Shown: positions 8,201 through 12,493, numbered from the stretch's first letter. The stretch is DNA of 64,000 bases from Patescibacteria group bacterium (GCA_004321885.1 SCQK01000007.1:32001-96000); one strand, 5' to 3'. The notes: generated by a model from the sequence alone, not told the origin. Made by a program: numbers and translations.

Positions 8201-8517
8201 GTTTTTGCAACAAAAAACCGCCTTTACAGACGGCTTTTTGTTAAAAAATCATTGACTTCACAAATGTGACTCCGCCAGAGGCGGATTGATAACTGACACA
8301 AAATTTATTTCGCTTGCGCTCTTAAATTTTGGTCGTTATCAAAAAAACGCACAATGTCTATTCCTTCATCTTTGGCGACTGTTACCGCGATGGATTCCTG
8401 CTTGCGCAGGAATGACAGCGTGGACAATTTGCCAATCGACAGAGTATCACAGTGTTTCCACTGAGTATCTCCAGAAAGGAGGTGATCCATCCACAGCTTC
8501 CGCTACGGATGCCTTGT

Positions 8518-9285
8518 TCATGTTTCTCCCTATGTCGCCATAAGGCACGGACTATATCATCACCCGTTTTGAGAGAATTTTTTGCTTAGCCGGATGCCAT
8601 GAGCCGATAACTCGGATAAAATCTTGGAGCGAATTCGCTCTCACGAATATGCGCCAATAATCCGGGTCAACTCGCTTGCTGGGATTGTGAACTTTCCCGC
8701 AAACGATGCTCATTTTTTTCAACATCTGTTTAAGCTTGCATATCTTGGCTTTATCCTTTTGCACCAATTGTATATACAGCCGCGCTGTAATGTGGTGCGG
8801 AACGCCGCCTTCGGCGTCAAAGAATCCTCGAATATACGCTTTTTGTTCTTCGCGACTTTTTAGCCGCAATGGATCAAAACGGAAATCCAGAAATGACGCT
8901 AATGTTTCAAGAACATGGACATCTCTGTCTTTTCCTTCGCGATACATCCAAGACGAATAGCCAATCTTTTTTAGAAGTCGCTTTAGCGTTTTTAGCCAAC
9001 CGGTTCCCTTTTGTGAAAAACGGAATCTGCGGTTACTGCTAAATGTGCCGTCGTGCAATGCTCCTAAAAGATATGCTTTTATTTCTCCCCTTAACGGGGT
9101 TCGGCGTGTAGTCTCTGAGGGGTCAATCCCGACTAAGTCGGGACGACTTCCCTGCTGATTGACTGCACCGAAAACTTTTTCACTCATACTGCTATAGTGT
9201 AGCACAAGTAGTTTCGGATACACAGTGTTTCCAGCAAACAGCCGAATTTGTTTTTAGCGATTACTCGCTAAGAGTCGCAATTTGT
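8518..9285 (-). mobile_element. Insertion 1 in the 16S gene (near the 3' end, between CCTTGTT and ACGACTT). It carries a LAGLIDADG homing-endonuclease ORF and is probably a self-splicing intron.
   Basis: The exon sequence is interrupted and resumes at about 9285. The ORF 8552-9223 lies inside. Confidence 0.7.
8552..9223 (-). CDS. LAGLIDADG homing endonuclease, intron-encoded.
   Basis: Motifs YLLGALHDGTF and IRGFFDAEGG. An in-frame palindrome (SRPDLVGID) lies near the N-terminus. Confidence 0.75.
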   Translation of the reverse strand: MYPKLLVLHYSSMSEKVFGAVNQQGSRPDLVGIDPSETTRRTPLRGEIKAYLLGALHDGTFSSNRRFRFSQKGTGWLKTLKRLLKKIGYSSWMYREGKDRDVHVLETLASFLDFRFDPLRLKSREEQKAYIRGFFDAEGGVPHHITARLYIQLVQKDKAKICKLKQMLKKMSIVCGKVHNPSKRVDPDYWRIFVRANSLQDFIRVIGSWHPAKQKILSKRVMI

Positions 9286-9696
9286 TTACGACTTTACCCT
9301 AGTCACTGACCCTGCCTTAATTCCCCGAAGGAAACTTTGGGCATTGCCAGCTCCCGTGGTATGACGGGCGGTGAGTACAAGACCCGAGAACGTATTCAAC
9401 GCGCCGTGGCTGATGCGCGTTTACTAGCGATTCCGACTTCATGAAGGCGAGTTGCAGCCTTCAATCTGAACTGGGGCCGGTTTTGATGGGATTGGCTCCG
9501 CCTCGCGGCTTAGCGACCCATTGTACCGGCCATTGTAGCATGTGTGTAGCCCTGGACGTAAGAGCCATGCTGATTTGACGTCGTCCACCCCTTCCTCCCG
9601 GCCCGCTGTTCGCTTGCTTTCGCAAACGCCCAAAGGGCCGGGCGGTCTCGCGTGAATATTTAACACGCGACGTGGGTTGCGCTCGTTTCCCAACTT

Positions 9697-9985
9697 AATG
9701 GTACACCTCCGGATTATTATCTTCACGCAGACTATTCCTTCACCCTTTGCCGACTAAGTCGGCATGAGGGGCTGGCGTATTAGCGGAACTATAAATTCAA
9801 TCACATCCATGAATTCCGCTCTTGGCAAAATGCCTTAGTCGTTACAGGGTCAACCCACGATTTTATTTAAAATCGGGGCGACTTCCCTCGGAGTTCCCAA
9901 ATTCATATGGTATATTTTACCATTTTTACATGAATTTGATAATGAGGTTCTCCGATATGAGCCAGATTTCTCATATCTCTTTTCA
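9697..9985 (-). mobile_element. Insertion 2 in the 16S gene, about 290 bp with no ORF, interrupting the conserved region around position 1070-1100.
   Basis: GGGTTGCGCTCGTT..CCCAACTTAA is followed by about 290 bp of non-rRNA sequence before ATGTTCACGGCACGAGCTGACG resumes. It shares a cgacttccctcgg motif with the other two insertions. Confidence 0.55.
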
Positions 9986-10290
9986 GAGATAGGCCGCGAG
10001 ATGTTCACGGCACGAGCTGACGGCAACCATGCAGCACCTATCTAGCACCCTCGAAGGCGGCGGCCGTTTCCGGCAGCTTGCAGCTAGTAGTTGAGCCCAG
10101 GTAAGGTTCCTCGTTTGTCGTCGAATTAAACCACATGCTCCACCGCTTGTGCGGGTCCCCGTCTATTCCTTTGAGTTTTAACCTTGCGGCCGTACTCCCC
10201 AGGCGGCGCACTTAACGCGTTAGCTTTTTTGAACGGCACTGACAGGGTCGATACTGCCAATACCTAGTGCGCATAGTTTAGGGCGTGGAC

Positions 10291-11320
10291 TACCAGGGTC
10301 ATTTCACTTTACATTTCTGTAAAGATTGGACTATATCATTTTCTGTAAGCTTTCCACTTGCTTTTCTTGAGATTGACATACTCTCGTATTTTTTCCAAAG
10401 AAAAGCCCGTGTTTTTCGCTATTTCAGAAATCCAGCGTTCTTGAAGTTGAACATCGTTATACATCAGAATCACTTTGGGCAAAACTTCTTCAACCTTCGT
10501 ATAAGGCAGAATAATGCGAAGAAGTTTTTTTAGTTCCTCGGTGGAACGCAACCAAATTCTGAAGTATTTTTCTTTTTTTCCATTAACCTTTGTAATGGAT
10601 GCCACTCTGACCTTGATTTTCCAGACTGTTTGAAGATATTTGGCTAAAACTTGCACGGCTTTTTCATCAAAGCCATCGGTGCAGATGACGCCTTTTCTAC
10701 CATTTGAAATGATAGAACCGTCGTCAAACCACCAGATTGCCAGTGATAATGGGCTCATGAAATTTAACCACTTTCTTCGTATTTCCAATCTGTTGTTTTT
10801 ACAGGTCAGATTGTGCATTTCCGTCAATGCTTCCAGGGCCTTGCTTTGATAACGAAGTTTTGCTTGTTTGCTAAACCCGTTATCTTGTTCTTGAAGCCAG
10901 ACCGACTTATCCGAGGATATCTCGGACAGCTGCCTGACCTTCCAGTCAAAGTAGGCTTTCTGAATGACGGAGTGCCTGAAAGAAAATCTGGCGTTTTTGT
11001 ATGGCCGATGGATTTTTAACGACCCGTCGCCCAACAAAGAGCCGAGGATTATTTCTTTCACGCCATTTGACAAAGGCACATTAGAATAATTATTCATAAT
11101 TTATGAATGATAATTAAATGCGCCAACTATCTTTCATCAACTTCATAGTCTCTACGGGGTCGAACCGCATTTGGCGGACGACTTCCCTCGGGATTGTCCA
11201 AACTGATGGTAGTATTTTTTTGTTTGGAGTTTCCCCGATATAGCTGAATGCTCATCTCAACATTGCTGTTGAGAGGGACACCGTTTATGCCGACTTGTTC
11301 CGCCTTAGGCGAACAAGCGA
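10291..11320 (-). mobile_element. Insertion 3 in the 16S gene (around position 790-800), with a LAGLIDADG ORF.
   Basis: The exon breaks after GGACTACCAGGGT and resumes at ATCTAATCCTGTTCGCTCCCCACGC, 11322 onward. Confidence 0.7.
10336..11097 (-). CDS. LAGLIDADG homing endonuclease, intron-encoded.
   Basis: Motifs ILGSLLGDGSL and LAIWWFDDGS. Confidence 0.75.
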   Translation of the reverse strand: MNNYSNVPLSNGVKEIILGSLLGDGSLKIHRPYKNARFSFRHSVIQKAYFDWKVRQLSEISSDKSVWLQEQDNGFSKQAKLRYQSKALEALTEMHNLTCKNNRLEIRRKWLNFMSPLSLAIWWFDDGSIISNGRKGVICTDGFDEKAVQVLAKYLQTVWKIKVRVASITKVNGKKEKYFRIWLRSTEELKKLLRIILPYTKVEEVLPKVILMYNDVQLQERWISEIAKNTGFSLEKIREYVNLKKSKWKAYRK

Positions 11321-12493
11321 CAAAGGATCTATCTAATCCTGTTCGCTCCCCACGCTTTCGTCCATGAGTGTCAGAAACGTACCAGCAAGCTGCCTTCGCC
11401 TTTGGTGTTCTTGCGGATATCAACGCTTATTACGACTACACCCGCAATTCCGCTTGCCTCTTCCGTCCTCAAGTTTGGTAGTTTCAAAGGCAATCTTAGA
11501 GTTAAGCTCTAAGTTTTGACCCCTGACCCGCCAAACCACCTGCGGACGCTTTACGCCCAATAAATCCGGATAACGCTTGAGGTCTCTGTATTACCGCTAC
11601 TGCTGGCACAGAGTTAGTAACCTCTTATTCACGAAGTACCGTCACGAATTCTTCCCTCGTAAAAGCGGTTTACGACCCGAAGGCCTTCATCCCGCACGCG
11701 GCGTCGCTCCATCAGGCTTTCGCCCATTGTGGAATATTCTCGACTGCAGCCTCCCGTAGGAGTCTGGGCAGTGTCTCAGTCCCAGTGAGGCAGGTCACGC
11801 TCTCACGCCTGCTACTGATCATCGCCTTGGTGAGCCATTACCTCACCAACTAGCTAATCAGACATAGGCCCCTCTCCAAGCAGCTTGCGCTTTTAAATGC
11901 GAATGACTTTTGTCCCCGCATTGCCATCGGGTTTTAATTCGCCTTTCGGCGAGCTATCCCCGTCTCGGAGGTAGGTTACCAATGTGTTACTCACCCGTTT
12001 GCCGCTCGTAATTCCCTTGCGGGAACACGTCGCTCGACTTGCATGCCTTAAACACGCCGCCAGCGTTCATCCTGAGCTAGGATCAAACTCTTAAAAAGAG
12101 TTGATCTCGTTCTACCCGACTTCGCCAAAGCTACATCGGGTAAGATGAACGAGTTAATATATACGGATTTATTTATTTATACTCGGTCGCCTCTTCGGCA
12201 GCCGAGTTTCGAATAGACTTTATTTTGTGGTTTTTGTCACGTTTGTGTTGTCAATGAACTTCTTACCCTGTTCGCAGAGTAAGAAAAAAGAGTAATCAAA
12301 TCTTGATTCCTCTTTTCTCTTACCAGTATCCACCGAAGGCGGACTTAGAAGACAAGCTGAATTGTCGGAGGTGCTTTTGCTGAAGGATTTATATTAAATC
12401 TTAGCTTTCGCATTTTATCATATACCAAAATTTTGTCAAGGGGGTGGGTGTGGGCAGAATGTGGATAAAAAAACAATAAAAACCTGCTCTGTA

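Follow-up and report, generated by a model that had tools for sequence, protein, structure and literature searches.

The whole stretch analysed here, 64,000 nucleotides of a Patescibacteria group bacterium (GCA_004321885.1, SCQK01000007.1:32001-96000; hereafter the window), contains on its minus strand what is very probably a single-copy 16S rRNA gene interrupted by three group I introns. These follow U793, U1078 and U1498 in Escherichia coli numbering, and two of them include homing endonuclease genes. The introns are designated I1, I2 and I3 in the order of transcription, and the coordinates of all features are collected in Table 1. The assignment is built on alignment, covariance models and comparison with homologous loci.

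The host is a bacterium of the candidate phyla radiation (CPR)/Patescibacteria, as the initial annotation of this DNA had surmised from the interrupted gene. Eight proteins of the window, looked up by exact sequence, are GenBank entries named "Patescibacteria group bacterium" that derive from a metagenome-assembled genome (MAG), with locus tags EPN28_016xx-018xx on a 214,539-bp contig. The 16S sequence is 79% identical to a Moranbacteria 16S and 91% identical to a metagenome contig.

Table 1. Coordinates of the 16S rRNA gene, its introns and associated features (window positions)
Feature	Position	Strand	Basis
Complete 16S rRNA gene, four exons and three introns	8475..12098	-	RF00177 and collinear alignment to E. 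coli rrsB
Exon 1, E. coli 1-793, 3' end GGAUUAGAU	11331..12098	-	BLAST/MAFFT against rrsB
Exon 2, E. coli 794-1078	10007..10299	-	Alignment to rrsB
Exon 3, E. coli 1079-1498	9288..9709	-	Alignment to rrsB
Exon 4, E. coli 1499-1542, includes anti-Shine-Dalgarno CCUCC	8475..8518	-	Alignment to rrsB
Intron I1, group I type, 1031 nt, after U793 (790 loop, helix 24)	10300..11330	-	rrsB alignment, Rfam halves, homologues
Intron I2, group I type, 297 nt, ORF-less, after U1078	9710..10006	-	rrsB alignment, full-length Rfam match
Intron I3, group I, 769 nt, after U1498	8519..9287	-	rrsB alignment, Rfam above gathering score
I1 homing endonuclease gene, 253 aa, LAGLIDADG_2, I-SceI-like two-motif monomer	10336..11097	-	Pfam, PDB sequences
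I3 homing endonuclease gene, LAGLIDADG_3, I-DmoI-like two-domain monomer, 211 aa from ATG (223 aa from GTG at 9223)	8552..9187	-	Pfam, AlphaFold 2 fold
I1 Q element and start of P6, AAUCCCGAGGGAAGUCG	11179..11195	-	Element search
I2 Q element and start of P6, AACUCCGAGGGAAGUCG	9879..9895	-	Element search
I3 Q element and start of P6, AAUCAGCAGGGAAGUCG	9144..9160	-	Element search
I1 nt 2-7, GAUCCU, pairs with exon 784-789 (helix H0)	11324..11329	-	Covariation
I1 putative internal guide, GGUGUC	11277..11282	-	Invariant in all homologues; P1 3' strand in the Rfam model
Promoter-like site TTGACA-16-TG-TAAAAT, about 315 nt upstream of the 16S 5' end	12412..12439	-	11/12 consensus positions; consensus match only

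One collinear 16S gene in four exons

In a scan of the whole window, the Rfam model SSU_rRNA_bacteria (RF00177; gathering score 50) aligns with the minus strand from model position 1 to 1533 and scores 1210 bits. The scan as a whole returns a single bacterial small-subunit (SSU) match, one group I intron above threshold and one tRNA-Ser. Numbering and exon borders were taken from BLAST and MAFFT comparisons with E. coli K-12 rrsB. The joined exons amount to 1527 nt, begin with AGAGUUUGAUC, finish with GGAUCACCUCCUUU and are 70-72% identical to the E. coli sequence. The three insertions that had been proposed to stretch the gene could be placed by alignment both to rrsB and to intron-less relatives, and the latter agree with the ligated exon sequence.

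The four exons are ordered and do not overlap, and the landmarks recognised initially therefore belong to one gene rather than to several partial copies. The 3' terminus (GGATCACCTCCTTT/GGAUCACCUCCUUU) lies at about 8475, as first annotated. An end at 9238, which Rfam obtains from a global alignment with the last ~40 model positions forced, was overruled by the alignment to E. coli and to relatives. Exon 4 is 100% identical to exon 4 of three other loci (L002, L009 and L011).

The 530-loop (11593-11619, minus strand) contains the pseudoknot pairs 505-526 and 506-525 as U-A and A-U, where both are G-C in E. coli. These pairs covary perfectly across the fetched loci, which include GG/CC, UG/CA, UC/GA, UA/UA and CG/CG combinations, and the change creates two mismatches within the site of primer 515F.

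Since the source is a MAG, and rRNA genes misassemble easily, the locus might be supposed to be an assembly chimera or a 16S pseudogene in which landmark segments from different partial copies or organisms were stitched together. The chance of this appears close to negligible, given that the exons are collinear and complete, the conserved sites are intact and the 530-loop pseudoknot is compensated. An independent Logan contig from run SRR8426592 has the identical I1 open reading frame (ORF), and the same exon-intron architecture recurs at the same nucleotides in many unrelated assemblies, all of which argues for a genuine, single interrupted gene.

Two observations on other 16S sequences were made in the course of these comparisons. 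The 3' exon beyond the U1498 intron is devoid of the anti-Shine-Dalgarno CCUCC at L003:1760-1815, L004:6405-6460 and L005:2800-2855, which come from MAGs labelled Saccharibacteria (two) and Minisyncoccia (one) and read GGAAUCAUUC or GGAUUCAUUC instead. Two of these loci, L004 and L005, additionally lose their 16S similarity near position 1400, and it is there that L005 has a group II D1-D4 match. Separately, an E. coli 16S copy was rejected as the numbering reference in favor of K-12 rrsB, because it is aberrant and numbers 22 nt too low. This copy (L007, from E. coli SWYHX138.33gt, NZ_CP091836.1:1798480-1799999) is annotated as a 16S of 1520 nt, looks more like a Firmicutes than an E. coli sequence at ~440-790, and is probably an assembly or polishing chimera.

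Group I introns at U793, U1078 and U1498

Ambiguities of 1-3 nt at the intron borders were settled by the group I rule that an exon U stands before the 5' splice site and that the intron has a 3'-terminal G. Borders placed in this way give an exon U before each of I1, I2 and I3 and a terminal G (omega-G) in each. More than 25 other genomes and metagenomes have homologous introns, with compensatory base changes, at precisely these positions.

With 69 bits, I3 exceeds the gathering score (50) of the Rfam model Intron_gpI (RF00028). I2 is matched over the full length of the model with 31.8 bits (E=1.5e-6 locally, 2.8e-4 window-wide). The ORF of I1 splits its core, so that the match to this intron falls into two halves, of 28.2 and 28.6 bits. 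No further Intron_gpI match was found elsewhere in the 64 kb. The insertions had initially been taken as intron-like, and a search with group I and group II models places all three in group I; the Rfam scan found no group II match in the window, and the rrsB alignment no insertion at position 1400, which is the group II site of CPR 16S genes (16IS9; PMC11270868). The relative L005, unlike the window gene, does have its group II match at about that position.

I1, I2 and I3 all contain recognisable P, Q, R and S core elements. P and Q make up P4 and compensate one another from intron to intron (UCGGG/CCCGA, UCGGAG/CUCCGA and UGCUG/CAGCA), and P7, formed by R and S, is GACUA/UAGUC in each. The initial annotation had described a motif common to the three insertions and read it as a sign of related intron cores. 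The 13-mer cgacttccctcgg is indeed present in I1 and I2, but I3 contains only the 9-mer cgacttccc. This motif is the universal group I Q element together with the start of P6, and hence it marks the insertions as group I introns and not as especially close kin of one another.

I2 is the intron without an ORF. It had been placed at 9697-9985, and both of these borders had to be moved (Table 1). Its P1 is GCCGU/GCGGC with a U.G wobble, and a homologue at the same site (L013:5090-5958) has GUCGU/GCGAC, a compensatory change. A 6-bp P10 (CAUCUC/GAGGUG) is present in both, and the peripheral hairpins of I2 compensate relative to those of L013. In relatives without the 1078 intron, CGU and GAGGUGU are joined uninterrupted. 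The L013 intron is 869 nt in length and nearly identical to I2 in its 5' third; its P6 accommodates a LAGLIDADG ORF, which terminates within the P6 3' strand. I2 thus represents the endonuclease-free state of a mobile intron family, a state that is expected from the homing cycle. Scans of genomes and of metagenome contigs were each queried with one endonuclease, and L013 is the only relative of the ORF-less I2 that they found. Position 1078 is presumably also among the intron sites of the gammaproteobacterial 16S genes that are compared below.

For I3, the near-3' junction originally proposed (CCTTGTT/ACGACTT) proved to be exact. Five genome relatives have identical borders, AAGUCGU^A...ACAUG^AACAAGG (carets mark the splice sites). 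P1 is AGUCGU/GCGACU with a U.G wobble and is invariant in 6 sequences, and P10 in this family ranges from 2 to 5 bp. The structure of the I3 family was written in full, including the P3/P7 pseudoknot and a P8 that spans the ORF, and was tested on six sequences. In these, 93% of cells pair, as against 31-45% in slid controls, and 25 of the 56 pairs have changed on both sides, with pairs of the long-range P3 and P8 among them.

An I3-type group I intron is also found at U1498 in a non-CPR, actinobacterial 16S gene (L006:5885-6701), which belongs to an uncultured Solirubrobacterales MAG (contig CAWGFQ010000010.1). That 16S sits in a normal linked 16S-23S-5S operon, and the intron's endonuclease is 49% identical to the I3 protein, which suggests that the I3-type family has moved across phyla.

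The insertions might instead be intervening sequences that RNase III removes without ligation, leaving a fragmented 16S, or retained expansion segments. Many bacterial 23S genes have intervening sequences, I2 is ORF-less with an Rfam score under the gathering threshold, and some short CPR insertions have been suggested to be of this kind (PMC11270868). This seems very improbable, however, for insertions that all have a P/Q/R/S core, a preceding exon U, a terminal G and guides complementary to their own exons. The sites themselves (the 790 loop, helix 34 and the h44/h45 junction) are, from textbook knowledge of the ribosome, not the usual surface helices. On these grounds of sequence and structure, all three insertions are assigned to group I, and their splicing is predicted.

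The U793 family has a distinctive 5' splice site. More than 20 metagenome loci have an I1-type intron with a homologous endonuclease gene at exactly 793/794 (GGAUUAGAU^ACCC). P2 covaries in this family (4/4 pairs), as does a helix between exon and intron, termed H0, in which intron nt 2-7 (RAUCCN) pair with exon positions 784-789. Across 14 distinct sequences, 100% of the H0 cells are paired, and the outer pair, exon 784 with intron nt 7, is AU in 7, GC in 6 and CG in 1. H0 is kept in L022 despite a 6-nt insertion in the loop. RNAalifold, applied to the I1 core, recovers H0, P2 and P9. A pairing between J3/4 and S that it also proposed was rejected as spurious; the P3/P7 pseudoknot is beyond what RNAalifold can represent.

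The putative internal guide of I1 would pair through its GUC with G791-U793, forming P1 with a U.G wobble, and through its GGU with A794-C796, forming a 3-bp P10 (GGU/ACC). It is possible, although doubtful, that the guide of the U793 family is split, and that nt 2-7 with 784-789 and GUC with G791-U793 together hold the 5' exon as an H-type pseudoknot, stacked into a quasi-continuous P1 of 9 bp. The nt 2-7 helix may then replace the native helix-24 stem, whose 3' strand sits in the downstream exon. Equally, H0 might be a helix-24 mimic, formed as a competing hairpin before splicing. If the split guide were correct, it would allow a group I intron to reside in a conserved rRNA hairpin loop with no more than three canonical P1 pairs. 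No published description of such an arrangement was found, and the covarying exon-intron helix beside the U793 splice site may be a new detail.

Several points weigh against the overall assignment to functional group I introns. The Intron_gpI scores of I1 and I2 lie under the gathering threshold, though still significant (window-wide E 3e-4 to 3e-3). For I1, a canonical P1 can be drawn as 3 bp only (GAU/GUC, within the invariant GGUGUCC); nothing longer was found past GAU/GUC, both sides of which are invariant among homologues and are adjoined by the covarying H0. No anchored covariation was found for a long-range P8 across the I1 ORF, I2 is without a clear P9, and the endonucleases of I1 and I3 could be inactive or could act as maturases.

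The short P1 of I1, the unclear P9 of I2 and an endonuclease gene that I2 has lost or never had would also suit group I-derived introns that no longer self-splice. In such a case, LAGLIDADG maturases, which are textbook knowledge from organelles, or host factors would remove the introns, and I2 would be a decaying remnant. This is judged unlikely, because each of the three families keeps its core helices intact under compensatory selection, and because poor intron removal would be intolerable for a single-copy 16S gene.

For three splicing group I introns, the preferred assignment, the expected course of events is as follows. A precursor of ~3.6 kb would be transcribed from the 16S gene, and I1, I2 and I3 would each fold into a group I core (P1-P9), in which the internal guide pairs with the last exon nucleotides, so that the exon U forms a U.G wobble. 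Attack of an external guanosine on the 5' splice site would free the 3'-OH of the exon, which would then attack past the terminal G of the intron, and the exons would be ligated to the 16S rRNA of 1527 nt. In homing, the endonucleases of I1 and I3 would cleave, at the corresponding sites, 16S alleles that lack the introns, and DNA repair would spread the introns.

Intron-encoded LAGLIDADG endonucleases

The two complete LAGLIDADG ORFs that were initially annotated (8552-9223 and 10336-11097) are both recognised by Pfam above the curated cut-offs, the I1 ORF as LAGLIDADG_2 (4.8e-36, 124.7 bits) and the I3 ORF as LAGLIDADG_3 (1.2e-12, 48.4 bits). The I1 protein aligns with members of the I-SceI family among the PDB sequences (6x1j, E=1.7e-5; I-SceI itself, 1r7m, E=3e-3) through both of its motifs, LLGDGS and WWFDDGS, and is therefore classified as a two-motif monomer. 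It differs from that family in that it is bacterial and has a predicted 16S target, and its C-terminal ~70 residues fall outside the match.

The I3 ORF is complete, as had been stated, but its start is likely the ATG at 9187 and not the codon at 9223. From this ATG, the product is exactly GenBank TAN33505.1, where it is annotated as a hypothetical protein. Homologues form 673 clusters at E<=1e-5, with named members in Wildermuth-, Moran- and Nealsonbacteria and other Parcubacteria. The motifs are LLGALHDG and GFFDAEGG, and their acidic residues (D46, D124 and E126) do not vary among 48 homologues. A sequence search of the PDB with the I3 protein gave no hit. An AlphaFold 2 model made from the 48 homologues (mean predicted local distance difference test score, pLDDT, 85) has two LAGLIDADG half-domains in residues 33-209, in keeping with the alpha-beta-beta-alpha-beta-beta-alpha fold of LAGLIDADG endonucleases. 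Its best Foldseek matches are I-DmoI (E=7e-9, probability 1.0, template modelling score 0.70 by target length) and I-Tsp061I. These are likewise two-domain monomers from rRNA introns, and the model superposes on I-DmoI over ~185 columns; however, no more than 16-20% of the sequence is identical, and an additional, core-encoded N-terminus of 30 residues sets the I3 protein apart. In the archaeal hosts of I-DmoI-type endonucleases, the introns are of the bulge-helix-bulge type and not group I.

This N-terminus coincides with the ribozyme. The first ~30 codons of the I3 ORF overlap the P5'-P8 region, so that the reading frame crosses most of the core, and residues 1-30 (9098-9187) are encoded by P5', P4', P6, P7 and P3'. 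Their pLDDT is below 50, and the model indicates that they are probably disordered. In the window as in L002, L003 and L004, an ATG in the P5 loop begins a frame that stays open even though the P6 hairpins differ in length. Residues Q11, Q12, S24, E25, T26 and R28 are invariant because their codons are the Q and R elements of the RNA. The I3 N-terminus can thus be regarded as an RNA constraint imprinted on a protein sequence. PMC11270868 describes a variable, non-domain N-terminus in LAGLIDADG_3 proteins.

Both ORFs stop in or beside the S element GAUAUAGUCC (10307-10339 and 8549-8568). The stop of the I1 ORF is a UGA in AAAUGAUAUAG, and that of the I3 ORF is a UAG in GAUAUAGUCC. Given these positions, ribosomes translating the I1 and I3 ORFs would unwind P7.

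Known systems and genomic surroundings

Introns in CPR rRNA genes were discovered in 2015 (Brown et al. 2015, via the review PMC9698310), and that review reports that metatranscriptomes support splicing in CPR. In the later survey (Tsurumaki et al. 2024, PMC11270868), 380 CPR 16S genes were examined, 48% of which have insertions, with up to 16 per gene. Rfam assigns 35% of the CPR 16S insertions to group I, and 49 of the group I introns in these 16S genes have no ORF. Two 16S sites are common to LAGLIDADG_2 and LAGLIDADG_3 genes, and position 1498 is named; this is the site of I3. Insertions at 793 and 1078 are likewise found in further CPR loci, and these two sites presumably correspond to other 16S hot spots of the survey (16IS4-7).

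The present locus resembles these systems in its host group, in the presence of several group I introns in a single 16S gene, in the 1498 site, in LAGLIDADG_2 and LAGLIDADG_3 proteins of ~210-250 aa, and in the coexistence of ORF-less and ORF-bearing introns. No essential difference from PMC11270868 emerges, apart from the fact that the endonucleases here are two-motif monomers, whereas there they are counted as single Pfam domains. With the 1498 site, group I introns and both LAGLIDADG families documented there, the locus belongs to a known phenomenon. The near-3' intron site and the ORF-less intron, which the initial annotation singled out as worth documenting, had both already been described in that survey. 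The locus mostly confirms the textbook picture of CPR bacteria, in which single rRNA genes harbour numerous mobile group I introns with genes for homing endonucleases.

A comparable case outside CPR is that of Salman 2012 (PNAS; cited in PMC4853749), in which bacterial 16S genes reportedly likewise have several group I introns, some with LAGLIDADG genes, and detection by polymerase chain reaction is hampered. Unlike here, the host is gammaproteobacterial and self-splicing was shown experimentally.

I1 splits the site of primer 806R (787-806), and I3 splits that of 1492R (1492-1513). With these two sites split, and with the two changes in that of 515F, organisms of this kind go undetected in standard amplicon surveys; neither 515F-806R nor 27F-1492R would amplify the present gene. 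In automatic annotation, the endonuclease genes come out as hypothetical proteins. For phylogeny, the corrected exon map provides a clean 16S sequence of 1527 nt. Specialists in RNA may find interest in the U793 split-guide helix, in the I3 reading frame through the ribozyme core and in the I3-type intron of an actinobacterial MAG.

The Rfam scan found no large-subunit (LSU) or 5S rRNA match anywhere in the 64-kb window, and 8.4 kb of protein-coding genes lie downstream of the 16S gene. The rRNA genes are thus unlinked at the 64-kb scale, which bears out the initial annotation on the lack of an adjacent 23S gene. The promoter-like site upstream of the gene, a strong match to the consensus, is listed in Table 1.

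Elsewhere in the window, a sub-threshold Rfam match to Plastid-psbl-rps4 (34190-34245, minus strand, 47.6 bits) lies antisense to the tRNA-Ser and is almost certainly a tRNA-shaped artefact. When the large ORFs of the window were checked against NCBIfam, 4 of 10 had no match. Positions 40876-42747 and 15040-18228 encode a VirB4-like conjugal-transfer ATPase (CD1110 family, 5e-108) and SMC, respectively.

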